From NCBI GenBank assembly GCA_032718475.1, contig JAUCBJ010005846.1, positions 1 through 39,420 on the forward strand: 39,420 nucleotides of DNA, in the 5' to 3' direction. The notes beneath the pieces were generated by a model. The model was not told the origin of the DNA. It ran no database searches and saw nothing but the letters and a program-made list of their open reading frames with translations. This DNA comes from Nemertoderma westbladi (taxonomy: Eukaryota > Animalia > Xenacoelomorpha). Positions 12,606 through 35,614 of the stretch are shown one piece after another. A program made the translations under genes and the position numbers. The first letter of the stretch is position 1, and every line of letters begins with the position of its first letter.

Positions 12606-12715
12606 ATATAGAATTTGTTCGCTAAGGAGTGGGTCATCAAATCAAGTCCCTTTCTAAAAAGTAAAAAAAAGTAAACCCAAAGTAACGCATCTCATCACCC
12701 AAAGTATAGTTCCTA

Positions 12716-13550: not shown

Positions 13551-13622
13551 AGACCAACACATTTTAAACCAGCACGTTTTTTATTTATTTTTACTGTAAT
13601 ATATAATACTAACTGCTGGATC

Positions 13623-13826
13623 GAGATGGGGGGGGGGGGGGGGGGGGATGGACACACAACACTCCTTGGCGTTTCAGCAATATTAATTATCAATTTAGAG
13701 AAAGGAGCTCGTTATAGAGGCAGGTTATTCTAACCAAAACAATAAACGAGAGTCTATGACACAGGTTATTGTTTGATTTTTGCTCGTAATCAACTGTTAT
13801 TTGCGTCCAATTTCCCCTGGAGATAG
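13623..13826 (-). mobile_element. Diverged MITE family A copy
   Basis: GAGATGGGG start, then CAATTTAGAGAAAGGAGC, TAACCAAAACAATAAAC and CTGTTATTTGCGTCCAATTTCCCCTGGAGA as in family A. Confidence 0.7.
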
Positions 13827-15206
13827 GCTGAATTTAGTATATTTATTTATGTTGGATGTTATTTATGGTTGTTTAGAAATAACTGAAAATCTACAACGTT
13901 ATTCTAGACCTGTTACATGACGGGGGGGGGGGGGGGGGGGGGGTTGGTGGTCGTGACGAAACCTGTGATAAAATATACCACACTTGGTTATAAGTATAAA
14001 ACTACAAATCAAACTACTAATCGGACCTAATGGAATGCGTTAGTCGGCCGCATATTGATTTGTATGAGCCAGCGCTGATTCTGTAAATGTACAAAATATT
14101 ATTTCATTATGTATTTTGTTATATTTTGAGATATATGTTGCGTTTGTTTTTGAATCTCGCTCTTCTTTAAGTTATTTTTAGTATGACGTAAGTAATTCTC
14201 CGATTACAGTTATTATGATATGAAGGTGGGTACCGGTGTTTATATTATTATTCTTTTTAACTTGCTTATGACTACGTTGATTTCTGCTGTGTATGTCTGC
14301 TATACCCTTAGTTGAATAAAGGAATCAGGAAGTATCTTTACTACTTAACCCCTTATTATAAATCGCTCTCACAAATGCTATCAAACACACACGCGGTAAC
14401 ATCAAACCATCGCGTTTATTTTAAGTCCGGAAATCCCAACTACCCTATATTCTTTCGGGACAGTAAAAGTTCGAAATGTATTATATTCGAACGCGTCGGC
14501 CCGTAATTAGCAAGCAGAAACGTGATTGGCGGAAGTTTGTGGTGCTGCTTCCCAGTTAATTACTGTACAATCCCCTTTCTTTGTCACATTGCCCTTCCCT
14601 TCTCCCTTTGAACTTCTTCTCTCTTATTGACATTTCCCGGCTTGGCCCCTTGAGAATGCCTTCCATTTTGAGGCGAAACCTACCGGTCAGCTGACTGCCG
14701 TCCACTGATCACTGTTTGCATGCAACGCTAGGTCTCGGTTACTTTTCACTTTGTGGTACTGCTGTACATACCTACCGGTAAGGTTTTCTACTTAACTTGC
14801 TTCACTAATAAAATTAAAACGATTAATATTTCATGATAACTCAAGTTGTTATGTTTTAAAGACAAACAATGTGTCCACTAGTGCCAGTGATCGTCCTAAT
14901 AGTGCACCCCAATCTATGAATATTGGCCTGTTGTTTTTATAGTATATTTATTAATATCTTTGTTTTCAGAAACAACTGAAACCCAATCAGTAGTACTCCC
15001 CGATCGGGAGCAGGGAGAAGGCGGTGGTAGAGATGGAGCCATAAGGACAGTAAACAGTACCGGTGAGTTTTATAAATATTTTCTACGGTATTGTCATTGT
15101 GGAACGCAATCACAAACAAAAATTTAATTAAACTAGTTTAATGTAGTTTAAATTGAAATTATTAAAACTTTATGTCACCAAAAACCGGTACTTTAGTTGA
15201 GTTATT

Positions 15207-15681
15207 GGACGGATCCAAGTTGGATGTCCTTATTTCTCATACGTTTGTTTGTTTGTTTGTGTGTTTGTTTGTTTTTTGTTTGTTTGTTTGTTTGAACACA
15301 CAACTGTTGATGGAATTTGATGAAACTTTGATGATGGGTTCATTATCGGACCTGCAGTAGTTGTGTATACAAGGTTGGTTGTGAGGAACCTGTTGGTTGC
15401 CTAGCAACAAAGAAATTAATTCTAGAATGACCGATCATAATAATTGTAGAATTCACTCAATAGAAATTATGTCTACACAGTTTAGAAAGAAAGAGAAACA
15501 GGAAAGTTTAGAAATATTAATTATTTTATTATTTATTTATTAATTTATATTATTAATTATTTTATTATTTATTTATTAATTTATATTATTAATTATTTTA
15601 TTATTTATTTATTAATTATGGTGGCGAATTCATTTTTTCCGCTCCATTTGCTATAGAGTTGGATCATCCTTAGTCCTGTTT
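15207..15681 (+). mobile_element. Possible HINE/DINE-1/pearl-like non-autonomous Helentron-associated element (partial second copy at ~19553-19720)
   Basis: 5' palindrome GGACGGATCCAAGTTGGATGTCC, then a (GTTT)n microsatellite and ATGAAACTT core; a 3' subterminal inverted match TTGGATCATCC at ~15659; absent at the equivalent site (13385) in the first duplicate. Confidence 0.5.
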
Positions 15682-16055
15682 AATTACTTATAATTTATTA
15701 ATTATATTATTAATTATTATTTGTGGAAGAAGATACATTTCCTACAAATCGTGTTTTTTTAACATACAATAATAATTGTATACTTGTACAGCCGGTACTT
15801 TGTCCAATGTTTCGTGTTTTATTATTAGGCTGCCCTTCATAGGCGCGTAATTTATTACAACAATATTGGTGGCAATGGATCCGTCCATTATTGCCAGTTC
15901 TCGTCTGGCCTGGTAAGCTTGTATATTTGAAACTTACACGTGTCACAATATATTGTTAATTAATATATTTTGGAGAAAATTCCAGTGCAAAATCAACATT
16001 GTAACTGTTCGGGTAGGAAAGTGGAACATCAATGCCAAGTGGGTGTAAACGTTAA

Positions 16056-18706
16056 GCAGACAGTGGTGCAGACATAGGTGCAGACAGTGGTGCAGACAGT
16101 GGTGCAGACACTGGTGCAAACAGTGGTGTAGACAGTAGTGCAGACAGTGGTGCCGACACTGGTGCTGTCAGTGGTGCAGACAGTGGTGGAGACCAGTGGT
16201 GCAGACACTGGTGCAGACAGTGGTGCACACACTGGTTCCCACATTGGTGCAGACAGTGGTGCAGACAGTGGTGCAGACAGTGGTGCAGACATAGGTGCAG
16301 ACAGTGGTGCAGACACTTCAGCAGACAGTGGTGCGGACTGTGGTGCAGACAGTGGTGCACGCACTGGTGTCGACACTGGTGCTGACAGTGGTGCTGTCAG
16401 TGGTGCTGACACTGGTGCAGACAGTGGTGCAGACCAGTGGTGCAGACACTGGTGCTGACAGTGGTGCACACACTGGTTCCCACATTGGTGCAGACAGTGG
16501 TGCAGACACTGGTGCAAACAGTGGTGCAGACAGTGGTGCAGACACTGGGCAGACAGTGGTGCAGACACTGGTTCAGACAGTGGTGCAGACACTGGTTCAG
16601 ACAGTGGTGCAGACAGTGGTGCAGACACTGGTTCAGACAATGGTACTGTCAGTGGTGAAGACAGTGGTGCAGACAGTGGTGCAGACAGTAGTGCCGACAC
16701 TGGTGCCGACAGTGGTGCAGACACTGGTGCAGACGCTGAGGCAGACAGTGGTGCAGACAGTGGTGCAGATAGTGGTGCAGACAGTGGTGCAGACACTGGT
16801 GCAGGCAGTGGTGCAGACACTGGTGTAGACAGTGGTGCAGACAGTGGTGCAGACAGTGGTGCAGACATTGGTGCAGACACTGGTACAGACAGTGTTGCAG
16901 ACACTGGTTCAGACAGTGGTGCAGACACTGGTTCAGACAGTGGTGCAGACAGTGGTGCAGACAGTGGTGCAGACAGTTGTGCAGACAGTGGTGCCGACAC
17001 TGGTGCCGACACTGGTGCCGACAGTGGTGCAGACACTGGTGCAGACAGTGGTGCTGACACTGGTGCAGACAGTGGTGCAGACCAGTGGTGCAGACACTGG
17101 TGCTGACAGTGGTGCACACACTGGTTCCCACATTGGTGCAGACAGTGGTCCAGACACTGGTGCATACAGTAGTGCAGACACTGGTGCATACAGTGGTGCT
17201 GACACTGGTTCAGACAGTGGTGCTGACACTGGTTCAGACAGTGGTGCAGACATTGGTGCATACACTGGTTCCGACAGTGGTGCACACACTGGTGCCGACA
17301 GTGGTGCAGACACTGGTGCAGACAGTGGTGCAGACAGTGGTGCAGATAGTGGTGCAGACAGTGGTGCAGACCCTGGTGCAGACACTGGTGCAGACAGTGG
17401 TGTAGACAGTGGTGCAGACAGTGCTGCAGACAGTGGTGCAGACATTGGTGCAGACACTGGTACAGACACTGGTGCAGACAGTGGTGCACAGGCAGTGGTG
17501 CAGACACTGGTTCAGACAGTGGTGCAGACACTGGTTCAGACAGTGGTGCAGACAGTGGTGCAGACAGTGGTGCAGACACTGGTGCAGACAAAGGTGCTGA
17601 CAGTGGCGAAGACAGTGGTGCAGACAGTGGTGCAGACAGTGGTGCCGACACTGGTGCCGACAGTGGTGCAGGCAGTGGTGCAGGCAGTGGTGCAGATAGT
17701 GGTGCAGACACTGGTGCAGGCAGTGGTGCAGACACTGGTGTAGACAGTGGTGCAGACAGTGGTGCAGACAGTGTTCCAGACACTGGTGCAGACAGTGGTG
17801 CACAGACAGTGGTGCAGACACTGGTTCAGACAGTGGTGCAGACAGTGGTGCACACACTGGTGCCGACAGTGGTGCCGACAGTAGTGCAGACAGTGGTGCA
17901 GACAGTGGTGCAGGCAGTGGTGCAGACACTGGTGCCGATAGTGGTGCCGACAGTAGTGCAGACAGTGGTGCAGACAGTGGTGCAGACAGTGGTGCAGACA
18001 ATGGTGCCGACACTGGTGCAGACAGTGGTGCAAGCACTGGTGCAGACAGTGGTGTAGACACTGGTGCCGACACTGGTGCAAACACTGGTGCAGACAGTGG
18101 TACAAACACTGGTACAGAAAGTGGTGCACACACTGTTGCAGACACTGATGCAGACACTGGTGCAGACAATGGTGCTGACAGTGGTGAAGACAGTGGTGCA
18201 GACAGTGGTGCAGACAGTGGTGCCGACAGTGGTGCAGACACTGGTGCCGACACTGGTGCATACAGTGGTGCAGACAGTGGTGCAGATAGTGGTGCAGACA
18301 CTGGTGCAGGCAGTGGTGCAGACACTGGTGTAGACAGTGGTGCAGACAGTGGTGCAGACATTGGTGCAGACACTGGTACAGACAGTGTTGCAGACACTGG
18401 TGCAGACAGTGGTGCAGACAGTGGTGCACGGACAGTGGTGAAGACACTGGTTCAGACAGTGGTGCAGACAGTGGTGCACACACTGGTGCCGACAGTGGTG
18501 ACGACAGTGGTGCAGACAGTGGTGCAGACAGTGGTGCAGGCAGTGGTGCGGACACTGGTGCAGACAGTGGTGCAGACACTGGTGCCGACACTGGTGCAGA
18601 CAGTGGTGCAAGCACTGGTGCAGACAGTGGTGTAGACACTGGTGCCGACACTGGTGCAAACACTGGTGCAGACAGTGGTTCAAACACTGGTGCAGACACT
18701 GGTTCA
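16056..18706. repeat. 12-bp minisatellite (GTGGTGCAGACA), ~2.65 kb, with higher-order blocks
   Basis: Continuous CAGACA(G/C)TGGTG repetition; the variant CACACTGGTTCCCACATTGG recurs at ~16230, 16470 and 17120. Confidence 0.98.
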
Positions 18707-18872
18707 TACTTAGAAAGTCCCTCTTCAGCAAGGTGCCGCTTCACATCTTCTTTAAGATGTAAGTAGCACGAGTGGATCAAGGAGGCTATAGAAGATGACC
18801 AGGAATTAATTAGGACCTTTTCACGGTCAGTTCCAATAGCTCGTATGTTTCGCAGCTGTGTTCGAAATAATA
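18707..18872 (-). pseudogene. Mutator/MULE-like DDE transposase remnant
   Basis: The minus frame upstream of ORF 17536-18780 reads LRNIRAIGTDREKVLINSWSSSIASLIHSCYLHLKEDVKRHL, resembling the MULE 'GTD-x-E-x-AL...CxxH-x3-N' signature (second catalytic Asp plus CxxH). Confidence 0.55.
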
Positions 18873-19292
18873 GTTAGTGAACTGTAGTTAGTTAATGTAT
18901 ATCCCCAGCATAAGAAAATAACTTGATTAATTCGTTTTATTAATAAGCAGTGACTCCAGTAAAAGTAAACAAATGAAACATTATCTGTATAAAGCAGCTC
19001 ATGTACTGTATAAACAATCAAACACTGTCGCTTAAGCCTCATTCCTTGGAGACATTGCTGCTCACAGTTTGTAGACATTATTGTTTATATGAAAACGGGA
19101 ATAACGATTAATTACTTTACTTTCGTACACACCACTTAGAATTATTTGTAATCAGGGCACATTCACCCCCACGCAACCCGACTTGCACTACATACTACCT
19201 CCCTACATCATGTAGAACCTTTCAGTATTATATTATACGCGCGTATTTGTAGATGATAAAGTCTATGATAAAATAAAATATAATAAATATTA

Positions 19293-19490
19293 CCAGTGTC
19301 TGGATCAGTGTCTGCACCAGTGTCTACACCAGTGTCTGACCACTGTCTGCACCAAGTGTATGCTCCAGTGTCTGCTCACTGTCTGCACCACTCTCTGCAC
19401 CACTGTCTACACCAGTGTTTGCACCACTGTCTGCACCAGATGTCTGCACCACTGTCTGCACCAGGTGTCTGTACCAGTGTCTGCACTACT
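19293..19490. repeat. Short block of the same 12-bp minisatellite in inverted orientation (CCAGTGTCTGCA)
   Basis: Reverse complement of the 16056-18706 unit. Confidence 0.93.
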
Positions 19491-19551
19491 GTTGAGGCGG
19501 GATATTAATTCGCCAAGATGGGATATGCGTCCAGTTTTCCCCCCCTGTCTC
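19491..19551 (+). mobile_element. Right-end fragment of MITE family A
   Basis: TTGAGGCGGGATATTAATTCGCC...TGCGTCCAGTTTTCCCCCCCTGTCTC. Confidence 0.8.
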
Positions 19552-20483
19552 TATTTCTCACACGTGTAGGTGTATGTGTTATGTGTTTGTTTGTTTGAAC
19601 ACACAATTTCTTGCACTTTATGTTCATGGAATTGGATGAAACTTTGCTGATAGGTTCATTATCGGACTTAGTTGTGTATGCAAGGTGTTGGTTGCAAGGG
19701 ACCTGTTGGTTGCCTACAAATATTTCCTATATTTCCTATATATTTCCTACAAACGGTGTTTTTTAAAATACAATATAATTGTATACATGTACAGCCGGTA
19801 TTCGGCCCAAATTTTCGTTTTTCATTATTAGGCTGCCCTGCATAGGAGCGTAATTTTTTTACAACAATATTATTGATGGCAATGGATCCGTCCATTATTG
19901 CCAGTTCTCGGCTGGCCTGGTCAGTAAATATATTTAGTAAGTAAATAAATTTGTAAAAGTAAATATATTTGGAGAAAATTACAGTGCAAAAACAGCATTG
20001 TAACGGTTCGTGTAGGAAACTGGAACATAGTTCCAATGCCAAGTAATTTATTTCACAGCGAGTAAGTCAGCCTTTATTTGACTACTGTGGGATCTATTCC
20101 TATAATCTTGTAATATAGTTTAATTTATTGAATATTGATTATAAATGCTTGATAACTATACAAATATCGAAAGAAGATATATTATAATTAATTTTAGATT
20201 GCCGTATTGAAGATAGGTATTAATGTTACAATATTTAGAAGAAAGGGTTTACTTTGAAATTGAAAAATTTGAGTGTGACTACGACTGGGATGGGAGGGGG
20301 GGGGGGGGGGGGGGGGACTCTTAGCGCAAATATCTGTACCTTTGTTTGTAGAGTTGCATTTTGTGCCCTTCTTTGACATTCGATTCTTGATATCTGTGTC
20401 CGTGTGTTCAGGTGAATATTACATAATAATTAATTGAACATTTATTTTTTCCAGACTCACATATTCAGATTCAAAGCAACGAA

Positions 20484-23400
20484 ATGGCGTTGGCGATTCC
20501 GTCTGGGAGAAGGAGGTTGGAGGACATGGCCGCAAGGAATGACATGTGTCCGGTGGACTGTGGTGGTGGAGGAGCAGGCCATTGTCAGTACTTGGCCGTT
20601 TCAATGGCCGTTCAACAACAAACTGGCTATCTGTACACGGTCAAAGAACTGAGAAAGTGTGTTGCCGAGATGCTACTACGTGAACAACACATATTTGAAC
20701 CGTTTGTACCAGTAAACTTTGATAACTATGTTAGTCGAGTACGGGATGGAAGGGAATGGGGGGATAACGTTTCATTACGAGTTTTAGCAAATCTTTTAGG
20801 GGTTAAATTCCAAATCTACGATACTGGAGTTAACAATGTGGCGGTGGTTGGGGAGGGGGTTACAAATATTTCCTTGGGGTATATCCACGATGAGGTACAT
20901 TATGTAGCCATTGTACAAAATAATCAAGTAATATCACAAGTAGCGGGGCACACATTGACACCTGGGACTGCAACACTGTCTTCCCGAGATGTGAACATTC
21001 TCATGGGTGGGGGGCCCAGTTCACAATGGGGGGTAGGGGAGGGGTCTCAAATACAACCAGGAACAAGCTCTATGGTTCATAATGTTAGAGAGGCGGAGGT
21101 TCCTATGGAAACTGAAAGCCATGGGTTACATAGCATGGGAGGTACAACAGAGTTTTATGGTGAGGACGATTTGGGTAGCGATTTTGAAATGGGTTCCGTT
21201 TCAGATGGTGAAGCTACCGGCATGGAAGTTGAGAGTGATAACAACTTAAACGATGAACGGTGTTCTAATTGTTTTAGAAAACATACGGAGGCCATGGTTG
21301 TAAATTTGGTGAGGTTTCAAGGAATTATTTTTCCGAAGGATTATGGAGATTTGAAAAGGGCGCCCGATAGGGGGGGTGAGTATATATTATGTACAGAGTG
21401 CAAGGAATACCTCACCCATAAGACACACCCTAGTTGGAGAGACGGTTGGCCATCGTATTATTGGACTATGGTAAGAACCACCAAAGACGGTAAACTATGG
21501 AGGATTGTTCCTCAGAGTTTGAGGAGTTCTTGGGATGGGGTGCAACAGATGTTTGCCGTTGGAATACAAAGGCATATAAATGTTGAACCTTTGTTTAATG
21601 ATATCACCGTAAACCGCCATTGGCATATGACCCTTATTAGCAGTCATCTTGATGTTAACATCATGAAGGCTGCTAATACCAACCCATATCCCGATGTGAA
21701 ATGTCCTTTGGGGTGCCACGAATTCCTCGATCGTATCAAGCCGTTGCCCCTTCACCATTTCCTCCACTTGTGGATTCCAAACTTTCATTCCTTCGAACCA
21801 AAGAAGGAATTAGTCCGTGGAATAGTAGGAGAATGGCCGTGCAATGGGTACGACTTGGGATATGTAATTCGTCCCTCATTGGTAATCATTCCCAACCGTG
21901 GCATTTGCGTTGCTATGTGCGAGGATCACGCAACTGCAGAGAAGTCCTACATCCACCCTCCTCGACATCCCGGCCACGGCGACGCCCTACAGTACCTCGA
22001 CCGACTCGCTCCAGCAACTGTGGCTCCAAATATTGTTCGTGATGGTCAGGTGGGGAAGTTCACCGCAAGTTTCCCTGTAGTCAAGGAAGTCGGAGGATAC
22101 CACGGCATATCGTCCACTACACTAACACCGGGACTTATTCTAACTATAGCAGACGACCGATTGGCTGAGGCTGAACGACTGACCCTGGACCACAGACCCG
22201 ACATCCTGTATACAACTTTGAACCGACAAGAAATGGGGGAGGAATTTGTGAGAGGGACTCTCCGTGCAGGTAAGTATGAGGAGTCTGGACTAATTGGATG
22301 TATTGGGAGTGGTTCATACGTTCCAATGGATGAAGCTTTATTTCAATGGGAGAATTACACATCAAAAGATAAAGGGAGTAAAACAAGTAAAACTAATTAC
22401 AGCCTCCCACTAGTACACCCTGGAAACGACCCTTACGGATGTGAACCACTCCACATTACCAACACATCGAGAACCTTAAATTCCAAACCAATTCTAGAAA
22501 ACGTACTACAAGTTATAGCCCATTCCCCTCCAACGCATAGACTGCTACAATCTACAGTAGAAAGTAATCAGTTATCCTACCAACTAATTACTGCGTTACA
22601 TACAGTGCTGAATTATGAACGTGGTAATGTAAACTGTGCAACAGAGAGACTACTAGAACGCAATGTATCTCAGTCAAGTAACACCACAGATTCTATTTTT
22701 CGCAAATCAGCTATTAATCTGTCACTAATAGAAGGAATATCCACTAGAAGCACTGCCGGAGGTTCAAATGGGACTAATATTGAATTATACATCCGGGATA
22801 ATAATACACGAAGTTTTATGGGACAAATACAGTTAGAAGAGCGCCTAATCATAGATACAGACAACATTATAGTGGATGGCAACGAGTATTATTTGCAGAG
22901 TGCCAGTAACGCAAAGGGAACACTATTTAGATGGGGGGAATTATTTCATTTTCGGGACACTCTAGGGACCAAATATGACAAGTCAATGGTGAACACATCT
23001 AGTATCTTAAGACATTTCAACATACTTGTCTTTGTAAAGAAAGCTCTACCTATGACCTACAAGGATAGACAGTTATCCCTTATAGCAGGGCAGAACAAAA
23101 TGAAATGCGAAATCCACAATCAATATTTAGTTAAACAACATGTCACCAACACATCGAATTGCTGTGAAATTGGTTGTACAACAAACGCTCGCTGGCGATG
23201 CCCGTGGGGTTTACCATTTCAATTTTGTGAAACGGGAGTTTGTTTCAAACACGGTAGACTGCTGGTCAAGAAACCTACAATCACTATGGTTGAAAGTTGC
23301 GTTGGTCGAGTGGCTGATGGTGTTAATCATAACATCAACACGTCATCAGGAGGCGTTGCCATGGACAACCAAGGAGATGTTGACCAACTTAGTCTTATTG

Positions 23401-26400
23401 AAGATCCCTTAGAACGCTTCATGGATGTGGTGTCCGATAACGAGGACGAAATAGAAGAAATAAACATTCAGATTGGTCTCCTAGGGAACCATGAAATGGT
23501 TACTAACGAACATGACATCATGCCGTTATATGCACGTAAAGACCGAGTTCCTTTAATAGACCTAAATACAATATCTCGGGTGCATGTCCTCCTTAACAAC
23601 GAGCTAGGTGTACTTAGGCGCAAAATTCCGCCCTACAATAGCTCCACTTTTAATAGAATATTAAATAACATAGTGTCACTCACCCCAGATGGAGCAGCTT
23701 CCCTAATTTATCCCGAAGGAATATTATTTCCGAGACTATTTTATCATTCAAACCCTGACAACTCCGTTTTAGGTGCCATCCCTTCCATTTTATATTCGGA
23801 TAAATCTACCTCCAGGCGTGGTATCGCTTCCTTAGATGACCATATGAAAGCAAGACTCAAAAATGGTGATTTACAAACTTCGAGATTTTTATCGTATATT
23901 GATTTTGCATTCGATACCAAAATTAATACTACACTAAATCATGCCTCAGCCTCAATAGCCCTAAATCGCGGTCTTGAATTTTTGCCGGATTTCAAAACAT
24001 ATTTCGCTGCAAAAGAGCAAAAATTAAATTTCAACGAATTAAATGACTGCAAGAGAAAGGTCAACGAACTTGCAGCATTGACAAAGGAAGGAAAGTGGGA
24101 CTATTTTGCGACACTGACCTGTAACGACAGCGAAACCCCCGGAGTTGCCCCAATATATACTAAAATTGTACAGAAATACGGGAATGATCCAATACGACAG
24201 CAAGACCAGGTCGACGCCCATGCTGTGTTACTAATTCGGTGCTGGTACCGGACAACTCACTATATAATGGACTGGATACAGAATAGTCCTCAACAACCCC
24301 TTGGACATGTCAAAAATATTTGGTGGAGGTACGAATTTCAAGACCAAAACGCCCTTGGGAACAAACCTCATATCCATATGGGCCTTTCTCTCCACCCAGA
24401 ACCCGTCTTGACAACTTTAGAGCGAATTTGCTGCCAGTCGAAGAGTCTTTTTCACGAAAGTTTTGGAACTGACCTAAATCAGCTAATAGATGAGGGACTG
24501 ATTGCAGACCACGATGATAAAAATAAATTCATGACTAACCTGCAATTCTTACAGACTCACAACTGTAAAAAAGCAGGAGAACGGTGCCACAAACGTACAG
24601 ATGCCCATGGCAACCCAATATGTCGATATACAAAGTACCCCCGCTCTAATGAACCTTATTTCAATGAGAAAACGGGAATATATAAAGATGAGACTCTGAG
24701 CAAACTTCTAGAATTAAACCTCGCCACACAGGATCCATTCACAAAGGTGATAACACCAATTAATTTATTAATGGGTGGGACTTATGGTTATGTGTCAGAT
24801 GGTGATGAGTTCTTTGTTCCTACCATTCCTAGACTGTTCTGTCTTATGCGTTCCTGTACCAATGTACAAGTTCCTTACTATCGCTTTATGAACTCATATA
24901 TGTTGAAGTATGCAGCCGGTAAAGAGGAACACTGCAAACATATACTGACAGAAACGAAAGAACCGGGTGTCTTCACAGGGGAAAGTAGGGAATTGGTGAA
25001 CGAAAAAATAACCAGTTGCAAATTTCTAGAAGAAAAACGGGCTAAAAAGGATAAGGGATATACAGCACGAAATATAGGTATTCCAGAACTGATTTGGTAC
25101 ACCTTAGGTCTGGAATATTTTAACACAAACGTTGAATTCCTTCACGTTTCTAGTTTGGCCCCAGCCTATCGAACTGGTTTCTGCCATCCACAGCCTGGAA
25201 AAAAGAAAGTATTGTTAGTTGCTGGAGAGGATGAAGAATTACTTCCAGTCTTGAAACGGGCCCATTTACCTGCCAGTAGACAGTTTACTCCATCCCAAGA
25301 ACTACTAATAACGGATTATATCGAAAGTTCATTCAGTGCTGATAGGATTACCAAGTTTAATCTGCGTCCACCAGAACTCCTTATCTTTGACACCATTGAA
25401 GTTTATACCAAGTGCTTCACCCATTCCTATATTGGTAATAATTACGAATTGGACCTACAAATCGGTGAATGCTTTTGGGTTGATGGACTAGGCCGGCGTG
25501 TTTTACTTCGTGCCTCTGGAATTACAAACGCTATGGCATTTCTGCAACACAAAGTCGATTCAAATGACCCTCTCGCCATAAACCTTTTACAGGAAATATT
25601 TGAGCCAATCTCTAATAATAATAAAGAGTTTATCACACGGTTTGTAAACACCCGGGACACAAAACCAGTTATAGTTGTGTTCACAAGCATAACCCCATTC
25701 CAAACCGAGAAATTCCTGATACACCTAATGTTATCCCTGGGACATTTTCAAACCGAACTTGATCTGTTCTCCACTTCATGTTTTCTGGAAAGTTTCAGTT
25801 TATCTAAATTGATACCGGACTGGAATAATGTTACGAATCAGGACTCCCTTAACCTTCGTAGGAAATACGTTCTGGAACAGTTGGGTCACTATCCAATTTC
25901 TACCAGACAGCTTGAGAAATCCCTCCACACAGCCGACTCTGTACTAACCGCATTTTTGAGTGGTGGTAACCTACAGTACACAACACTACCCATTGTACAG
26001 GAGTCGTTATTTAGAGAAGCTGCTTCGGCCGAAGTTATTAGAGAGGAGGCAGCAATGAAAAACAGCATAATTAAAGGTTTTGTAGAAAAACAGTTAAATA
26101 TTCCCGCTGCAGAGTTGGCAACTGCCACAAGTGAAAATCCATTGCAATGGGAGCCCGAAATCACCCGTCATCCTTCACAGCCATTAACATCGGTAGATGA
26201 ACAGAAGCAAACATTGACTCTATGCTGTAAATCTATCAAAGATTATATAACACCAACAACAACATTTGTTAAACCTATCATAATTGTAGGTCCGCCAGGA
26301 ACTGGTAAAACTAGAACTTTACAGCTGGCTGGTGCCTTTGCAGTATCAAAAGGACTTCGAGTTTGTCTGACAGCATTGACAAGTAATAAAGCGAGAGAAC

Positions 26401-28100
26401 TTGGAGGTGTACATTTGCACTCCTTATTGTCATTGTCTGGAAATTCTGGCTCCAAAGGTTTGGAAATATCTAAACTATCTGAGGAATCACTTTACAATTT
26501 GGCAAAATCATCTAAAAAATATGCCATTCTCCAGCGCCTGGATGTGATTCTCATAGAGGAGATAGGACTGCTATGTGGCGAGCTTTTGGCTGTTCTGGAT
26601 CATGTTTTGAAAAAGATTACAAAAACTCAGTTGCCATTTGGAGGCAAATTAATTCTTGCCAGCGGCGACCACGAACAACTGCCACCCATTCAAGGTACCC
26701 AGATATGGTTGTCTCCACAATTCCTTTCTGTCTTTCAGGTTGCAAAGTTGTCAGTCTATGTACGATCTGCTGGTGACCCTGCTCTACGGGAAGTTCTAGA
26801 ACTTTTTAGGAAGCACCCGTTATCCCAGGAAGATGAAGACCGTATAATTTTCCTCCTTTCCACCCATTGCCAGTTTGTAGATACTTGGAATGACGTTCCA
26901 AAGGAATGTGTGAGAGTTGTTGGTAAAAGGCCAGCTGAACGAGAAGCAACCCGGCTCTTCCTGGACTCCCTCCAACAAGACCCAAACATTGTGGCGATTG
27001 AATATACATCCAAGGATGAAATGGAAAACCATGTTGGTAACTGGGTTGATGCTTCACCGAGGGTATCAAAGATACTAGATAATGAGGTGAGAGAAGCCAA
27101 GGATATATTAATTCCAGTTGGAACCATAATGCGGATTACATACAATGGTACCACTGGTAGACATACATTCTCCCAAGGTCAACTAGTTGTCATCGAACGA
27201 CTGCCAACACCCGAGGACCAACATATAATCTGCCGCCTCATTCCCTTTGCCCATGGTATTGTGGATTTTGATAATTTAGAAATCTACCCTCTTATATCCC
27301 TTGGTTTACATGTAACTCCAGATGTTAGAGTTGGGACTGATCTCCAGAAAGCGAGAAGGGAGCAGTGGCCAGTACAGCATGTAGCCGCATGCACTGTCCA
27401 TAGAATTTTGGGTGAGACATGCCCATGTGTTGCAACAAAGATAGGTCGCCAGGATTCTATTTGGTGTATGTGGCTGAAACAGCAACTCCACGTGACCATT
27501 TCACGACCTCATTATTTGCGGTTCCTATATTTTGTTGGTCCCAAAGAGGAAACATTGCTGCAAATAAGAATATTGATAAAAAAGAACCAACCAATCGAGC
27601 ACCACATAAGCGACATGATAAATAAATTAAATGTTATTACACTACCCATTGAGGGTCAACAACCATCGGGACCAGCCCCTGTTCCTGTGTTAACTCACCC
27701 ACCACCATTAGTACAACCGCGCCATTGTTTTGCAATGGATATTCAAATACCAGATGATTCCTGTGGGTTTCTATATATTTTGGTCAGTGTCCCATTCCCT
27801 GAAGAAACATATATAGGAGAGGCAGCGAATCTAAGAAAGGCACTCCTTGAACATCGGTTGGGCCAATGGCCAAACCGGTCAGACAACCCAAATTTACAAC
27901 CATGGCAACCGTATGCTTTCGTTACTGGTTTCCCTGGAAACGGTTTCGAGGAAACAAATATAGACGTTAGAAAGTCTCTACAAATTGCTATTCTGTACCG
28001 CTTGAAACGAAATATGTCATTAACTGAAGTTCTAGAAATTACCATCCAGATGTCTAGACGAGAGAACTTGGGACTGCGGGTAGTAAAAGTATTTAAATAA
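20484..28100 (+). CDS. Helitron/Helentron-like RepHel transposase, 2538 aa: OTU-like domain, Cys/His clusters, HUH-Y2 Rep endonuclease, Pif1-like SF1B helicase, SLX1-like GIY-YIG domain
   Basis: OTU: GAGHC34QYLAVS, WGDNVSL, H139Y. Rep: YFATLTCN (~1207), WRYEFQ...PH1296IH, LQTHNC, Y1472MLKY1476, ARNIGIPELIW. Helicase: GPPGTGKT (1936), ILIEEIGLL, FGG...GDHEQLPPI, YVRS, REQWPV, ACTVHRILGET, QLHVTISR. GIY-YIG: GFLY2431IL...TY2443IGE..NL...EH...PW...VTGF. No stops over 7.6 kb. An acceptor (TTTTTTCCAG|20455) with an open frame to the ATG means the protein may extend through upstream exons. Confidence 0.92.
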   Translation: MALAIPSGRRRLEDMAARNDMCPVDCGGGGAGHCQYLAVSMAVQQQTGYLYTVKELRKCVAEMLLREQHIFEPFVPVNFDNYVSRVRDGREWGDNVSLRVLANLLGVKFQIYDTGVNNVAVVGEGVTNISLGYIHDEVHYVAIVQNNQVISQVAGHTLTPGTATLSSRDVNILMGGGPSSQWGVGEGSQIQPGTSSMVHNVREAEVPMETESHGLHSMGGTTEFYGEDDLGSDFEMGSVSDGEATGMEVESDNNLNDERCSNCFRKHTEAMVVNLVRFQGIIFPKDYGDLKRAPDRGGEYILCTECKEYLTHKTHPSWRDGWPSYYWTMVRTTKDGKLWRIVPQSLRSSWDGVQQMFAVGIQRHINVEPLFNDITVNRHWHMTLISSHLDVNIMKAANTNPYPDVKCPLGCHEFLDRIKPLPLHHFLHLWIPNFHSFEPKKELVRGIVGEWPCNGYDLGYVIRPSLVIIPNRGICVAMCEDHATAEKSYIHPPRHPGHGDALQYLDRLAPATVAPNIVRDGQVGKFTASFPVVKEVGGYHGISSTTLTPGLILTIADDRLAEAERLTLDHRPDILYTTLNRQEMGEEFVRGTLRAGKYEESGLIGCIGSGSYVPMDEALFQWENYTSKDKGSKTSKTNYSLPLVHPGNDPYGCEPLHITNTSRTLNSKPILENVLQVIAHSPPTHRLLQSTVESNQLSYQLITALHTVLNYERGNVNCATERLLERNVSQSSNTTDSIFRKSAINLSLIEGISTRSTAGGSNGTNIELYIRDNNTRSFMGQIQLEERLIIDTDNIIVDGNEYYLQSASNAKGTLFRWGELFHFRDTLGTKYDKSMVNTSSILRHFNILVFVKKALPMTYKDRQLSLIAGQNKMKCEIHNQYLVKQHVTNTSNCCEIGCTTNARWRCPWGLPFQFCETGVCFKHGRLLVKKPTITMVESCVGRVADGVNHNINTSSGGVAMDNQGDVDQLSLIEDPLERFMDVVSDNEDEIEEINIQIGLLGNHEMVTNEHDIMPLYARKDRVPLIDLNTISRVHVLLNNELGVLRRKIPPYNSSTFNRILNNIVSLTPDGAASLIYPEGILFPRLFYHSNPDNSVLGAIPSILYSDKSTSRRGIASLDDHMKARLKNGDLQTSRFLSYIDFAFDTKINTTLNHASASIALNRGLEFLPDFKTYFAAKEQKLNFNELNDCKRKVNELAALTKEGKWDYFATLTCNDSETPGVAPIYTKIVQKYGNDPIRQQDQVDAHAVLLIRCWYRTTHYIMDWIQNSPQQPLGHVKNIWWRYEFQDQNALGNKPHIHMGLSLHPEPVLTTLERICCQSKSLFHESFGTDLNQLIDEGLIADHDDKNKFMTNLQFLQTHNCKKAGERCHKRTDAHGNPICRYTKYPRSNEPYFNEKTGIYKDETLSKLLELNLATQDPFTKVITPINLLMGGTYGYVSDGDEFFVPTIPRLFCLMRSCTNVQVPYYRFMNSYMLKYAAGKEEHCKHILTETKEPGVFTGESRELVNEKITSCKFLEEKRAKKDKGYTARNIGIPELIWYTLGLEYFNTNVEFLHVSSLAPAYRTGFCHPQPGKKKVLLVAGEDEELLPVLKRAHLPASRQFTPSQELLITDYIESSFSADRITKFNLRPPELLIFDTIEVYTKCFTHSYIGNNYELDLQIGECFWVDGLGRRVLLRASGITNAMAFLQHKVDSNDPLAINLLQEIFEPISNNNKEFITRFVNTRDTKPVIVVFTSITPFQTEKFLIHLMLSLGHFQTELDLFSTSCFLESFSLSKLIPDWNNVTNQDSLNLRRKYVLEQLGHYPISTRQLEKSLHTADSVLTAFLSGGNLQYTTLPIVQESLFREAASAEVIREEAAMKNSIIKGFVEKQLNIPAAELATATSENPLQWEPEITRHPSQPLTSVDEQKQTLTLCCKSIKDYITPTTTFVKPIIIVGPPGTGKTRTLQLAGAFAVSKGLRVCLTALTSNKARELGGVHLHSLLSLSGNSGSKGLEISKLSEESLYNLAKSSKKYAILQRLDVILIEEIGLLCGELLAVLDHVLKKITKTQLPFGGKLILASGDHEQLPPIQGTQIWLSPQFLSVFQVAKLSVYVRSAGDPALREVLELFRKHPLSQEDEDRIIFLLSTHCQFVDTWNDVPKECVRVVGKRPAEREATRLFLDSLQQDPNIVAIEYTSKDEMENHVGNWVDASPRVSKILDNEVREAKDILIPVGTIMRITYNGTTGRHTFSQGQLVVIERLPTPEDQHIICRLIPFAHGIVDFDNLEIYPLISLGLHVTPDVRVGTDLQKARREQWPVQHVAACTVHRILGETCPCVATKIGRQDSIWCMWLKQQLHVTISRPHYLRFLYFVGPKEETLLQIRILIKKNQPIEHHISDMINKLNVITLPIEGQQPSGPAPVPVLTHPPPLVQPRHCFAMDIQIPDDSCGFLYILVSVPFPEETYIGEAANLRKALLEHRLGQWPNRSDNPNLQPWQPYAFVTGFPGNGFEETNIDVRKSLQIAILYRLKRNMSLTEVLEITIQMSRRENLGLRVVKVFK

Positions 28101-28229
28101 TTAATATTTTACAAATTTCATTGGGTGTGGGGGGGGGGGGGGGGGCTACTTACATTATTTGGTTAAATTAAAGGTTGTACATTCACACATTTGCATAATG
28201 AACATTCTGTTGTGGTACATGGCAAGGGT

Positions 28230-29877
28230 TGTGGGGCGAGTCACGCAGTCAGGGCGAGCCTTAGGGCACAATTATTATTAGTATGTATGTAGGGCAACAT
28301 TTCATGTTCGTCCTTTTGAAGATTTTAACCATTTTCAACCACATTTTGTATGGGCATACTATAGAAAAAGTTCCAATATTTTTATAAAGTTACGGGCAAA
28401 TATCTCTCGAACTTTAGACTCCAGATCAAATCGAACTTGTTTCGAACTTGCTCAAGTTCGCGTGCTGCGCGATGTCCCACGAACGTGTACCATTCCTAAG
28501 AGTCATGGGGAATGCTCTAGTTTTGAGTCGAGCATTGCCCGCTCTGACTAGAGACAGGAACCATGACTCATAACCCTATGCCTATATCACTTTTTCTACT
28601 CATATTCTTTTTATTTTTTTTTATTTTATGAGTCATGGCGACTGCTCTAGTTTTGAGTCGAGCATTGCCCGCTCTGACTAGAGACAGGAACCATGACTCA
28701 TAACCCTATGCCCATATCTCTTTTTCTACTCATTCTTTTTATTTTTTTTTATTTTATGAGTCATGGGGACTGCTCTAGTTTTGAGTCGAGCATTGCCCGC
28801 TCTGACTAGAGACAGGAACCATGACTCATAACACTATGCCTATATCTCTTTTTCTACTCATTCTTTTTATTTTTTTTTATTTTATGAGTCATGGCGACTG
28901 CTCTAGTTTTGAGTCGAGCATTGCGCGCTCTGACTAGAGACAGGAACCATGACTCATATACCCTATGCCTATATCTCTTTTTCTACTCATTCTTTTTATT
29001 TTTTTTTATTTTATGAGTCATGGGGACTGCTCTAGTTTTGAGTCGAGCATTGCCCGCTCTGACTAGAGACAGGAACCATGACTCATAACACTATGCCCAT
29101 ATCTCTTTTTCTACTCATTCTTTTTATTTTTTATTATTTTATGAGTCATGGTGACTGCTCTAGTTTTGAGTCGAGCATTGCCCGCTCAGACTAGAGTCAG
29201 GAACCTGACTCATAACCCTATGCCTATATCTCTTTTTCTACTCATATTCTTTATATTTTTTTTATTTTATGAGTCATGGGGACTGCTCTAGTTTTGAGTC
29301 GAGCATTGCCCGCTCTGACTAGAGACAGGAACCATGACTCATAACCCTATGCCCATATCTCTTTTTCTACTCATTCTTTTAATTTTTTTTTATTTTATGA
29401 GTCATGGGGACTGTTCTAGTTTTGAGTCGAGCATTGCCCGCTCTGACTAGAGACAGGAACCATGACTCATGTAACCAACCATGTCAAATAAACCCTCAAC
29501 TTATTTATTTTACTACCATTCCGTTCCAGTTTATTACCAGTTGTAGTGTATGCCGCGCTGGTAATAATCTGGAACCTGTAGTATTCTGGAACACGTTCGT
29601 TGGGTTTCGCGAAGCGCGCGCCCCTGAGTAAGTTCGAAACCGGTTCGATTTGATGTGGAGTCAAAGGTTCGAGAGGTATTTGCCCGTAACTTTCAAAAAT
29701 ATTTCAACTTTTTCTTCTTTAGTATGCCCATACAGAATTTGGTTGAAAATGGTTAAAATCTTCAAAAGTTATTTACGAATGAATTTTCCATTAAGACAGA
29801 CAGACATGAAATTTTGCGCTATTTACTAATTATAATTGTGCGCTAAGGCTCGCCCTGACTGCGTGGCTTGCCCCACA
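28230..29877. mobile_element. Non-coding foldback/TIR element with ~250-bp terminal inverted repeats
   Basis: 28230-28472 (TGTGGGGCGAGTCACGCAGTCAGGGCGAGCCTTAG...AAAGTTACGGGCAAATATCTCTCGAAC...) is the imperfect reverse complement of 29607-29877 (...GTTCGAGAGGTATTTGCCCGTAACTTT...CTAAGGCTCGCCCTGACTGCGTGGCTTGCCCCACA). No clear TSD. Confidence 0.88.
28500..29470. repeat. Eight tandem ~128-bp units, each a ~72-nt imperfect hairpin plus a T-rich linker
   Basis: GAGTCATGG starts at 28500, 28630, 28758, 28886, 29015, 29143, 29271 and 29399; arms ATGAGTCATGG/CCATGACTCAT and CTCTAGT/ACTAGAG pair. Confidence 0.96.
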
Positions 29878-30047
29878 TTAGTATATCCGTATTCTAACCG
29901 TATCAAATTCTCAAAAATTCTCAAGTAATTCATTTTGCTACCATCCCGTTCCAGTTTATTACCAGTATGCCGCGCTGGTAGTAATCTGGAACCTGTAGTA
30001 TTGTGGAACATTAGTTCTTGTCACTACGGCAAGTTCAAGAACTTTTT

Positions 30048-33000
30048 AGTACATTCACCCATTTGCATAAGGAACATTGTGGTACACGACAAATGTTGTA
30101 CATTCACCCATTTGCATAAGGGACATTGTGGTACACGACAAATGTTGTACATTCACCCATTGCATAAGTACATTGTGGTACACGGCAAAGGTTGTACATT
30201 CACCCATTTGCATAAGGGACATTGTGGTACATGACAAATGTTGTACATTCACCCATTGCATAAGTACATTGTGGTACACGGCAAAGGTTGTACATTCACC
30301 CATTTGCATAAGGGACATTGTGGTACACGACAAATGTTGTACATTCACCCATTTGCATAAGGGACATTGTGGTACACGACAAAGGTTGTACATTCACCCA
30401 TTTGCCTAAGGGACATTGTGGTACACGACAAATGTTGTACATTCACCCATTTGCCTAAGGGACATTGTGGTACACGACAAATGTTGTACATTCACCCATT
30501 GCATAAGTACATTGTGGTACACGGCAAAGGTTGTACATTCACCCATTTGCATAAGGGACATTGTGGTACACGACAAATGTTGTACATCCACCCATTTCAT
30601 AAGGAACATTGTGGTACACGACAAAGGTTGTACATTCACCCATTTGCCTAAGGGACATTGTGGTACACGACAAATGTTGTACATTCACCCATTGCATAAG
30701 TACATTGTGGTACACGGCAAAGGTTGTACATCCACCCATTGCATAAGGACATTGTGGTACACGACAGAGGTTGTACAAGGGACATTGTGGTACACGACAA
30801 ATGTTGTACATTCACCCATTAGCCTAAGGGACATTGTGGTACACGACAAAGGTTGTACATCCACCCGTTTGCATAAGGGACATTGTGGTACACGACAAAT
30901 GTTGTACATTCACCCATTTGCATAAGGGACATTGTGGTACACGACAAATGTTGTACATTCACCCATTTGCCTAAGGGACATTGTGGTACACGACAAAGGT
31001 TGTACATCCGCCCATTGCTTAAGGGACATTGTGGTACACGACAAAGGTTGTACATTCACCCATTTGCATAAGGGACATTGTGGTACACGACAAATGTTGT
31101 ACATTCACCCATTTGTATAAGGGACATTGTGGTACACGACAAATGTTGTACATTCACCCATTTGCCTAAGGGACATTGTGGTACACGACAAAGGTTGTAC
31201 ATCCACCCATTGCATAAGGACATTGTGGTACACGACAGAGGTTGTACAAGGGACATTGTGGTACACGACAAAGGTTGTACATTCACCCATTTGCATAAGG
31301 GACATTGTGGTACACGACAAATGTTGTACATTCACCCATTTGTACAAGGGACATTGTGGTACACGACAAATGTTGAACATTCACCCATTTGCATAAGGGA
31401 CATTGTGGTACACGACAAATGTTGTACATTCACCCATTTGCATAAGGGACATTGTGGTACACGACAAATGTTGTACATTCACCCATTTGCATAAGGGACA
31501 TTGTGGTACATGACAAATGTTGTACATTCACCCATTTGCATAAGGGACATTGTGGTACACGACAAATGTTGTACATTCACCCATTTGCCTAAGGGACATT
31601 GTGGTACACGAAATAGGTTGTACATCCACCCATTACATAAGGACATTGTGGTACACGACAGAGGTTGTACAAGGGACATTGTGGTACACGACAGAGGTTG
31701 TACATCCACCCATTGCATAAGGACATTGTGGTACACGACAGAGGTTGTACAAGGGACATTGTGGTACACGACAAATGTTGTACATTCACCCATTTGCCTA
31801 AGGGACATTGTGGTACACGACAAAGGTTGTACATCCACCCATTGCATAAGGACATTGTGGTACACGACAGAGGTTTTACAAGGGACATTGTGGTACACGA
31901 CAAATGTTGTACATTCACCCATTTGCCTAAGGGACATTGTGGTACACGACATAGGTTGTACATCCACCCATTACATAAGGGACATTGTGGTACACGGCAA
32001 AGGTTGTACATTCACCCATTTGCATAAGGGACATTGTGGTACACGGCAAAGGTTGTACATTCACCCATTTGCATAAGGGACATTGTGGTACACGGCAAAG
32101 GTTGTACATCCACCCATTATATAAGGACATTGTGGTACACGGCAAAGGTTGTACATCCACCCATTTGCCTAAGGGACATTGTGGTACACGACAAAGGTTG
32201 TACATCCGCCCATTTGCCTAAGGGACATTGTGGTACACGACAAATGTTGTACATTCACCCATTTGCCTAAGGGACATTGTGGTACACGACAAAGGTTGTA
32301 CATCCACCCATTTGCCTAAGGGACATTGTGGTACACGACAAATGTTGTACATTCACCCATTTGCCTAAGGGACATTGTGGTACACGACATAGGTTGTACA
32401 TCCACCCATTTGCCTAAGGGACATTGTGGTACACGACAAATGTTGTACATTCACCCATTTGCCTAAGGGACATTGTGGTACACGACATAGGTTGTACATC
32501 CACCCATTACATAAGGGACATTGTGGTACACGACAAATGTTGTACATTCACCCATTTGCCTAAGGGACATTGTGGTACACGACATAGGTTGTACATCCAC
32601 CCATTACATAAGGGACATTGTGGTACACGGCAAAGGTTGTACATTCACCCATTTGCATAAGGGACATTGTGGTACACGGCAAAGGTTGTACATTCACCCA
32701 TTTGCATAAGGGACATTGTGGTACACGGCAAAGGTTGTACATCCACCCATTATATAAGGACATTGTGGTACACGGCAAAGGTTGTACATCCACCCATTTG
32801 CATAAGGAACATTGTGGTACATGACAAAGGTTGTACATTCACCCATTTGCAATAAGGACATTGTGGTACACGACAAAGGTTGTACATTCACCCATTTGCC
32901 TAAGGGACATTGTGGTACACGACAAAGGTTGTACATTCACCCATTTGCATAAGGAACATTGTGGTACATGACAAAGGTTGTACATTCACCCATTTGCATA

Positions 33001-33385
33001 AGGAACATTGTGGTACACGACAAAGGTTGTACATTCACCCATTTGCAATAAGGACATTGTGGTACACGACAAAGGTTGTACATTCACCCATTTGCCTAAG
33101 GGACATTGTGGTACACGACAAAGGTTGTACATTCACCCATTTGCATAAGGAACATTGTGGTACATGACAAAGGTTGTACTGTACATTCACCCATTTGCAT
33201 AAGGAACATTGTGGTACACGACAAAGGTTGTACATTCACCCATTGCTTAAGGGACATTGTGGTACACGACAAAGGTTGTACATTCACCCATTGCTTAAGG
33301 GACATTGTGGTACACGACAAAGGTTGTACATTCACCCATTGCTTAAGGGACATTGTGGTACACGGCTCCACGGTTGTACATTCTC
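30048..33385. repeat. 49-bp minisatellite, ~3.3 kb (GTACATTCACCCATTTGCATAAGGGACATTGTGGTACACGACAAATGTT) with 48-bp and shorter variants; one degenerate unit at 28172-28232
   Basis: TGGTACACGAC at 30080, 30129 and onward gives a 49-bp period. Confidence 0.98.
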
Positions 33386-33705
33386 TCACTTAAGAACATG
33401 GTTGTCAATAACAATCTAGGTTGCACGACATGAAAGCTTAGGACTATTTTTAATTAATTAATAAATGTAAAAAAGTAAATTCAACTAAACAAATATATTA
33501 TTACATAGGATATGTGGTGTTATAGGGAGCGGCGGTGGAGGAGGCGGGGGGGGGGGGGGGGGGGGGGTTGGTTAACCACATTTAGGTGGGTCTAATAATG
33601 AATACCTTACATGTACACATCCCGTACTCGACAAACATGGTTACATTTTTTATTTTTCATATAGTCATTCTGTCTAATTTTTTAATACCAATATATTATA
33701 AAGAT

Positions 33706-34830
33706 ATGGTATATCATATTTTTTATTATTATTTTATAATGTTATAATGTCGTAATACATTGTAAGTTTTCATGTTATAGATAAACTATATTTTACTTCC
33801 AATAATATTACAGTGCGAGACGTTTCTATAGTGCGTCTGTATTGCAACTGCCTAAACCATATTCAAGGTAGTCCTACTACTGTACTACGTGTGCCTCAAT
33901 GGAAGTTAATAGATTCAAACTGGCCGTATAAATTGTGCATTACTAATTATGCAATTAATTATGTAATAATTATTATGCATTACTACAATGTTGTTATAAC
34001 CATGAAGTTAGGTAATATTTCCGCATTTTCAAGGAAAATGATTTTAACTGATACCTTAAAACTTATATGAAACCTTAAATATGTAAACCTTATATAATAT
34101 AATAATATATAATTATATAAAAACCTAAAATATTATTTACATTATATCCCGTGGTGTGATATTACTTTATTATCTACACATATATATTCACACTATATTA
34201 GGAGTATGTACCTATTGTATATGCATATTGCTAATTAACTAATACTGTTACTTATGTTTGCAATAAATATAATTTTGTTAATTAAAAAGTTTATAAATTA
34301 TAAATATACTTTATGGTATATCATATTTTTTATTATTATTTTATAATGTCGCTAATTTTCATCACTTATACTCAATGTTTTAGATAAACTATATTTTACT
34401 TCCAATAATATTACAGTGCGAGACGTTTTTGTAGTGCGTCTGTATTGCAACTACTTAAACCATATGCATTCAAGGTAGTCCTACTACGATGTGTGCCTAA
34501 ATGGAAGTTAATTGATTCAAACTGGCCGTATAAATTATGCATTACTACGTGATATGTTATGTAAACTTAGGTAATATTTCCGTACTTTCAAATGAAATGA
34601 TTTTAACTGATATCTTACAACTTATGTGAAACACCATATATATATATCGTATTATATCCGGTGGATCTTTATTATCTATAGGCATATATATATATATATA
34701 CACACATTTGGCAGTATGTACCTATTGTATATGCATATTAATTGCTAATTCATTAATACTGTTACTTAAGTTTGCAATAATTATAATATTGTTAATTAAA
34801 AAGTTTATAAATTATTATACATATACTTTT
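33706..34830. repeat. Diverged tandem duplication, ~600-bp unit, 2 copies; a partial third copy at ~36445-36560
   Basis: ATGGTATATCATATTTTTTATTATT at ~33706 and ~34313; TAGATAAACTATATTTTACTTCCAATAATATTACAGTGCGAGACG in both copies. Confidence 0.85.
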
Positions 34831-35366: not shown

Positions 35367-35614
35367 CAGATAGGGGGGAAACTCGACGCAATAAAAATTC
35401 ATCCCTCTCCAGGGGAAATTCGACGCAAATAACAGTTGATTACTCTCAAAAATAAACTGTAACCTGTTCTATTGTGTTTAGTTTATTGATTTGGTTAAAA
35501 TAACGTGCCACTGTAACCTGCTCATTTCCCTAAATTGAGAATTTAACATTGAGACGTGATATTAATTCGCCAATTGGCCAATTTGCGTCCAGTTTCCCCC
35601 TCCCCCCCTGTCTC
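35367..35614 (+). mobile_element. MITE family A copy
   Basis: Full body with CAGATAGGGGGGAAACTCGACGCAA...TTGCGTCCAGTTTCCCCC..CTGTCTC; flanks do not form a TSD. Confidence 0.88.

Follow-up and report, generated by a model that had tools for sequence, protein, structure and literature searches.

A RepHel-type transposase with a nuclease-like C-terminus

Does a nuclease-type domain fused behind the helicase of a Helitron-like transposase still cut DNA, and to which lineage of rolling-circle elements does such a protein belong? Both questions are raised by a contig of Nemertoderma westbladi, of which we analysed a stretch of 39,420 nt (the window). Amid satellites and repeat fragments, ORF analysis of this window identified a single open frame on the plus strand (20484-28100; all coding features below are on this strand), encoding a RepHel-type transposase of 2538 aa with no internal stop, as the first-pass annotation had described. 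The OTU, Rep, helicase and GIY-YIG motifs that it had read from the translation were likewise all in place: Cys34/His139 at the N-terminus; FATLTCN (1208), YEFQ (1283), PHIH (1295) and YMLKY (1472) in the Rep; GPPGTGKT (1936), IEEIG (2024), GDHEQLPP (2061), YVRS (2092), TVHRILGET (2304) and QLHVTISR (2334) in the helicase; and FLYIL (2429), YIGE (2443) and PWQPYAFVTGF (2473) in the GIY-YIG region.

Searched as a whole against Pfam, the protein matches OTU (1.8e-8, aa 30-115), PIF1 (1.4e-10, aa 1931-2070) and, just below the cut-off, Helitron_like_N (2.5e-6, aa 1195-1299), the last of which rises above the cut-off when a fragment is searched. Together with the family alignment, these matches delimit an HUH-Y2 Rep domain (aa 1195-1495; 24066-24968) with H1296, H1298, Y1472 and Y1476, and a Pif1-type SF1B helicase (aa 1925-2360; 26256-27563) with intact motifs. 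The Rep H-x-H is kept in 121/121 family members and the two tyrosines in 119/121 and 117/121, while the helicase Walker B reads EE in the ORF, as it does in 45 of 111 members. The protein therefore carries the hallmark of the superfamily, an HUH-Y2 Rep upstream of a Pif1-type helicase within one transposase. No AP endonuclease was matched by Pfam in the 2538-aa protein, in four relatives or in 18 scanned family members, and a GIY-YIG fold occupies its position, in agreement with the earlier reading of the C-terminus. DUF6570 was detected by Pfam in four reference proteins and was matched neither in the 2538-aa protein (E<=1) nor in the same four relatives and 18 family members.

The C-terminal domain has a predicted SLX1-type fold with a substituted active site

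The C-terminal domain (aa 2425-2538; 27756-28097) was delimited by fold prediction, alignments to SLX1 and the family profile. Taken by itself, the ORF copy matches Pfam GIY-YIG at E=0.21 (C-terminal fragment), and it matches SLX1 chains at E 0.15-0.93, ranking behind two chance matches to designed proteins; a five-sequence profile of the ORF and its four relatives matches SLX1 structures at E 6e-6. With an AlphaFold model of aa 2405-2538 (37 sequences, pLDDT 89.5) as the Foldseek query, all top ten rows were SLX1 or HIGLE (E 1e-5 to 2e-4). In a VIA structure search of the same region, SLX1 and At-HIGLE scored Z 10.0-11.7 with an rmsd of 1.9-2.5 over about 100 residues, the next fold reached Z 6.3, and I-TevI and UvrC reached about 5. 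The GIY-YIG identity is thus confirmed by family and by fold, and the domain has a predicted fold of the SLX1 type, which bears out the fold proposed for it in the first-pass annotation. It has both the fold (Z 10-11.7) and the RPW..GF motif in common with SLX1/At-HIGLE (PDB 6seh, 4xlg, 7cq3, 7wme). Unlike SLX1, it has no RING domain and is fused to a transposase.

The active site of the ORF copy is incomplete. Y2431, Y2443, Gly2445 and H2457 are kept, and alignments to SLX1 chains place A2453 (27840-27842) at the position of the active-site Arg36. Further along, Q2500 (27981-27983) falls in a family column that holds Glu in 69/95 members; as the HMMER alignments end at SLX1 residue 71, it is from an F-E-x-x-W pattern and the spacing that we take this column to be the equivalent of Glu79. 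The positions of Cg-Slx1 Arg35, Arg38 and Asn41 are held by Lys, Leu and Arg, respectively. In Cg-Slx1, the substitution E79Q abolishes activity (PMC4407285). Since Ala and Gln stand in the ORF copy at the Arg36 and Glu79 equivalents, its domain is, as far as the residues indicate, likely not a nuclease. The earlier proposal of an SLX1-like GIY-YIG domain therefore stands for the fold; the full catalytic Tyr-Tyr-Arg-His-Glu set is absent from the ORF copy, for which the suggestion of a working structure-specific nuclease is not supported. The replaced Arg and Glu had been overlooked, as had the USP-fold domain at aa 653-855 described later.

The GIY-YIG domain is retained across a broad family, often without its catalytic residues

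We compiled the family with an HMMER search using aa 1001-2172, from which the GIY-YIG was left out; it returned 345 clusters at E<=1e-30, the top 150 being listed. Sensitivity was low in the word-index searches (4, 1 and 3 hits); the one with aa 1000-2538 yielded the four relatives, which share 29-34% identity across the searched region. GIY-YIG exceeded the Pfam cut-off in 3/4 of these relatives and in 13/18 of the scanned family members. When profiles iterated from the ORF's own domains were run over 155 proteins, the domain was present in 95 of the 100 members that have a helicase match and a tail of at least 60 aa, always 34-65 aa downstream of the helicase, and four of the five members scored as lacking it still show the motif start. 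The three organism names found on the 30 clusters looked up were Myxine glutinosa (hagfish), Styela clava (tunicate) and Perkinsus chesapeaki. In the ESM Atlas, two clusters combining PIF1 and GIY-YIG ranked first (0.97 and 0.94), one of which includes a few diatom records. Among eleven metagenome loci retrieved, three have the GIY-YIG in the last exon after a short intron. Several clusters have multiple members, such as P0004 with 17 and P0039 with six, five of these being 2455 aa long and located on several long contigs.

Among the 95 members, the full Y-Y-R-H-E site is present in 66, both R and E are missing in 21, six are partial and two are truncated. The two residues are lost jointly: 67 members have both, 21 neither and five only one. 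On a FastTree phylogeny, in which kin share states, six changes of catalytic state are needed, and five of them are forced by well-supported branches. Members with the double loss keep the Rep H-x-H (15/15), the two tyrosines (15/15 and 14/15) and the Walker A Lys (21/21). For two loci that both lack R and E (L002 and L003), dN/dS was 0.10 in the GIY-YIG domain and 0.087 in the helicase; this is a single pair from another host, with almost no sequence difference over the last ~100 bases. The two pairs with L004 were saturated. Because dead members keep their Rep and helicase motifs, and because dN/dS is this low, cutting appears dispensable while the fold is kept. A fold kept in dead members would point to a binding or structural role. 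We therefore favour, with a probability of roughly 60%, a reading in which the ORF encodes a Helitron-like rolling-circle transposase whose C-terminal SLX1-fold domain, without its catalytic Arg and Glu, binds branched DNA rather than cutting it.

Alternatively, the domain of the ORF copy might be a functionless relic, and that of the intact members a target-nicking counterpart of the Helentron AP endonuclease that decays once lost. Its location speaks for this, as the GIY-YIG occupies the position that the AP endonuclease has in Helentrons (PMC6431247, PMC8788227), and so do the strongly decayed motifs of several dead members (YIG is lost in P0033, P0060 and P0072) and the poor Pfam score of the ORF copy given above. 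We nevertheless consider it unlikely, since 95 of 100 members keep the domain at a fixed distance, old dead clades included, since dN/dS in the dead pair is as low as 0.10, and since the model folds with high confidence.

Still less probable is a domain that continues to cut by way of substitute residues, with Lys2452 or Arg2451 in the role of the arginine and Glu2488/2489 or Asp2494 in that of the glutamate. In its favour, both tyrosines, Gly2445 and His2457 are kept, and the loop leading into the helix contains acidic residues. Against it, a Glu-x-x-Asn loop is also seen where the site is intact (in P0006, for example), the family loses R and E jointly, and cutting by Cg-Slx1 is abolished by E79Q (PMC4407285).

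Two of the metagenome loci have features of their own. The family member at L007 (3-6773) is AT-rich (30% GC) and rich in Asn repeats, which suggests a protist host, and two hairpins with a common 18-base loop lie past the stop codon of the relative at L002 (4613-4740). Rfam matched neither these hairpins nor any part of the window or of four loci.

Ubiquitin-related and Cys/His-rich domains precede the Rep

An OTU-like cysteine protease domain (aa 24-145; 20553-20918) opens the protein, with Cys34 and His139 kept in an alignment with five relatives. The N-terminal OTU of the first-pass annotation is thus present in the ORF; as a lineage trait it does not hold up, being found in 6/155 proteins and in 5/74 of those reaching the N-terminal Cys-rich domain, and it is an accessory. 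In three other members (P0091, P0180 and P0029), Pfam identified a protease behind the GIY-YIG, either Ulp1-type C48 (E 3e-10) or a weak OTU, so that modules of the ubiquitin/SUMO type recur at both ends of these proteins.

The OTU is followed by a family-specific Cys/His-rich domain (aa 256-520; 21249-22043), which occurs in 74/155 proteins, was modelled with a pLDDT of mostly 85-96, has no Pfam match and probably binds zinc. A second Cys/His cluster (aa 870-932; 23091-23279), a probable zinc finger, occurs in 97/155 proteins.

Between these two lies a predicted USP-fold (ubiquitin-specific protease-like) domain (aa 653-855; 22440-23048), identified by VIA in a model of aa 250-949 (34 sequences, pLDDT 77.3). 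In an exhaustive VIA search with aa 653-855, ranks 1-36 were all USP-fold chains, the best being the Pan2 pseudo-USP (Z 10.4, rmsd 4.0, 189 aligned). Foldseek with the aa 250-949 model gave no match at E<=0.001, USP domains being top-ranked with a best E of only 0.06, and the ESM Atlas contained no usable match for aa 250-949. The pattern N-x-G-N-x-C-[YFW], which we take to describe the USP Cys box, was found in none of 71 family members, in an alignment whose register was checked on three rows. The domain shares its predicted fold with the Pan2 pseudo-ubiquitin-hydrolase and USPs (PDB 4czw, 4q8g, 5txk; Z 8-10.4) and differs from them in sequence, with about 10% identity, an rmsd of about 4 and, in the 71 members, the absence of the Cys-box pattern. 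With moderate confidence, based on these models, we regard aa 653-855 as a putative non-catalytic pseudo-USP.

Read contigs suggest several copies of the element

Three sequencing runs from two studies cover half or more of the window. In read contigs, the ORF has a depth of 87-490, compared with 7-32 for the shallowest flank contigs, depth not being equivalent to copy number. Joints that skip parts of the ORF were found at 20828-24082, 24383-24607 and 24642-24816 in three runs and at 25999-27673 in two, none of them with intron ends. Because depth is no copy number and joints with a short side are unsafe, these data suggest, rather than prove, several copies of the element accompanied by deletion derivatives. 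Among 486 differences between reads and window, the 40 best supported include 32 in the ORF, of which 19 are silent, 13 change a residue and none introduces a stop. A joint at 19517-28085 was considered as an end of the element and rejected, because its short side coincides with the terminus of another, unrelated inverted-repeat element of high copy number.

One run, X5, lacks the ORF from about 21000 to 27800 and yet is deep at 20232-20987. A deep X5 contig leaves the ORF at 20729 and continues with letters like those of 33667-33695, and X5 depth climbs from 16 to 280 at about 33681. This jump hints that the element extends past a 49-nt satellite and beyond 33700, and from the X5 contig and depth we tentatively assign 33668-34672 (plus strand) as a probable 3' non-coding part. 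In the repeat analysis, the satellite (28170-33364) begins 70 bases past the stop, running over 28170-28229 and resuming at 30049-33364, and it would probably lie inside the 3' part of the element. It is interrupted by an unrelated high-copy TIR element (28230-29877), in which a 128-nt array lies between long inverted ends; its two ends, 28230 and 29877, are loose in three runs. This insertion, 130 bases past the stop, argues against the ORF copy being brand new, and the recent activity proposed in the first-pass annotation was not borne out. In two read-mapping analyses of the window, no termini, hairpin or insertion site of the element were located, which is why its transposition is something that we infer.

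Such an element could also have been domesticated as a host gene present in a single copy, the alternative named by the first-pass annotation as a syntenic gene. This would fit an intact 7.6-kb frame amid decayed repeats, the excess of silent variants and the lack of located termini. It is highly improbable, as the deep ORF contigs and deletion derivatives come from runs of two studies, as X5 is without the ORF and yet has deep fragments of it, and as the relatives are multi-copy.

The surroundings of the ORF contain several other repeats. A MITE-like element of about 240 nt with 16-base inverted ends is present at very high copy (summed depth >100,000 in three runs) and was found at 35369-35610, 10497-10735, 12233-12462, 4755-4964, 3255-3980 and 19492-19550, with tandem 103-nt pieces in one of these regions. 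At 16056-19486, a 590-base spacer lies between a 12-nt satellite (220 units) and a short copy of this satellite in inverted orientation, a foldback-like arrangement. Degenerate duplicated blocks with exon-like pieces (68-95% alike) lie upstream of the ORF at 12713-16040 and 19571-20079; a splice-acceptor-like site is located 29 bases before the ATG, and these blocks may be 5' parts of the element. Fragments resembling non-LTR retrotransposons occur at 7976-8731 (DUF6451 match) and at about 35615-36440 (recognised by eye, with high depth).

The family groups apart from HLE1, among non-HLE1 references in the helicase tree

For placement, we used 31 helicase and 28 Rep family rows, hand-picked from 155, with three dropped for want of a Walker A match and the others to limit computing time; since every family row is a top match of the query, this selection accounts for part of their clustering. 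The references are eukaryotic-looking Helitron sequences from prokaryote genome bins, labelled by Pfam or motif, a thin set in which DUF6570 was shown in only 4/7 of the non-HLE1 members. As a separate observation on these GTDB bins (L012-L053, L071-L079), many contain eukaryote-type Helitron sequence, probably through host contamination, and one bin labelled Dehalococcoidia accounts for 11/42 matches.

Two bacterial Pif1 served as the root of the helicase tree (47 rows), in which the family forms one clade (98/92) outside HLE1 (100/99) and falls among six non-HLE1 references with unstarred support of 94/86-89, not with bacterial Pif1. The unrooted Rep tree (45 rows) separates it from all 17 references (100/96). 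The HLE1-type references, eight in the helicase tree and 11 in the Rep tree, form a starred clade of their own in each (100/99 and 100/98, respectively). A placement outside HLE1 and HLE2 together was not rejected by the AU test (p 0.109). Judging by these trees and by domain content, we consider the family to be neither HLE1 nor Helentron; it may be a derived form of HLE2 or a lineage in its own right. Its own clade and the module fused behind the helicase family-wide support the earlier suggestion of a distinct rolling-circle lineage with an SLX1-type module.

The helicase profile prefers bacterial Pif1 structures over Helraiser (1.9e-19 vs 6.2e-14), and the Rep had no Helraiser match in the same profile search, which would fit a further alternative: no transposon, but a virus or a plasmid-like rolling-circle replicon that became endogenised. 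This is highly improbable given that none of 70 pattern matches in viral contigs is a relative, that the window has no capsid-sized second ORF, that an intron precedes the GIY-YIG exon in three relatives, and that the helicase tree groups the family with Helitron-type rows, not with the two bacterial Pif1. Viral contigs likewise contained no relative in searches with the family alignment or P0181 and no match to three motif patterns.

With the HLE1 elements, i.e., canonical Helitrons such as Helraiser (PDB 7lcc), the family shares the RepHel core and its catalytic motifs; it differs from them in its separate clade, in having no Pif1_2B_dom match and in the longer spacer between HUH and tyrosines (~175 aa). 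HLE1-type TC...CTRR ends were not found for the element of the ORF. The HLE2 elements (Helentron/Helitron2), the nearest rows in the helicase tree, likewise combine an HUH-Y2 Rep and a Pif1-type helicase in one frame with an optional OTU (PMC11417382, PMC8788227, PMC3627910). According to the same sources, HLE2 Helentrons resemble the family in having a nuclease-type domain behind the helicase, and HLE2 subgroups c and d have UCH domains. Unlike HLE2 so described, the family is without DUF6570 (the HLE2 marker of PMC11417382) and without an AP endonuclease, in place of which it has the SLX1-like GIY-YIG; in addition, it has a long N-terminus of its own, a USP fold without a Cys box and its own clade in both trees.

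A GIY-YIG in a Helitron is not wholly unreported, as a single capture was found in print: the moss HLE2 family HelenSM92 of Sphagnum magellanicum (PMC11417382). In the main text and the legend of Suppl. Fig. S8, on which our comparison is based, this GIY-YIG lies in a Helitron-like element, as here, and the family is classed as HLE2, with TT sites and copies of 16-19 kb, and described as one capture (PMC11417382). The same text mentions unclassified elements in 19 genomes (PMC11417382). A third clade in Paramecium, with RepHel proteins outside HLE1/HLE2 and satellites between ORF and ends, is similar to the present locus and is set apart, by description rather than by sequence comparison, through its 9-10 kb ORFs and telomere targeting (PMC13085455); 'GIY' has no occurrence in that text and seven text-readable supplements (PMC13085455). 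No paper describing the present lineage was found in the full-text literature, searched mostly at title level and outside Repbase, Dfam and most subscription journals. The lineage is apparently broad and little described, and what is new at this locus is the disarmed nuclease site, its recurrence across the family and the pseudo-USP domain.

A possible role in the rolling-circle cycle

In the Helitron cycle, the HUH-Y2 Rep nicks one end of the element and holds it on a tyrosine, and one strand is displaced by the helicase; a circle is then closed with the help of the second tyrosine, and the Rep joins it to the target. The Rep and helicase of this family likely work as in other Helitrons, and these steps would create single/double-strand junctions and flaps of the kind that are substrates of SLX1. 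In the intact members, which make up roughly two thirds of the family, the SLX1-like domain may trim such flaps or junctions or nick the target. For the ORF copy and roughly one member in five, cutting would be dispensable, being left to host nucleases or to the Rep, and the dead domain may have kept its fold in order to bind, or to pack against the helicase. Most speculatively, the USP-fold and OTU domains might engage ubiquitin carried by chromatin or by the transposase, or strip it off.

A bolder version, which we hold only tentatively, is that the family represents an ancient, eukaryote-wide Helitron class outside HLE1 and HLE2, defined by the pseudo-USP and the SLX1-type module, that would resolve its own branched intermediates and in which the module would repeatedly have turned into a junction-binding clamp while the elements remained mobile.

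Implications for Helitron biology

How the integration of Helitrons is completed, and what purpose an additional nuclease serves in some of them, are open questions, and the function of the captured AP endonuclease is given as undetermined (PMC8788227). The family amounts to a natural experiment, in that the chemistry of the fused nuclease is known, the transposases number in the hundreds, and live and dead versions have arisen several times; because both versions exist, a cutting role and a binding role can be directly tested against each other. New tools for rolling-circle gene transfer, and flap nucleases that act independently of SLX4, might be sought among the intact members. Overall, our results suggest that the HLE1/HLE2 scheme gives poor coverage of a large Helitron lineage whose hosts include animals, alveolates and probably diatoms, and the annotation of repeats would be affected accordingly.
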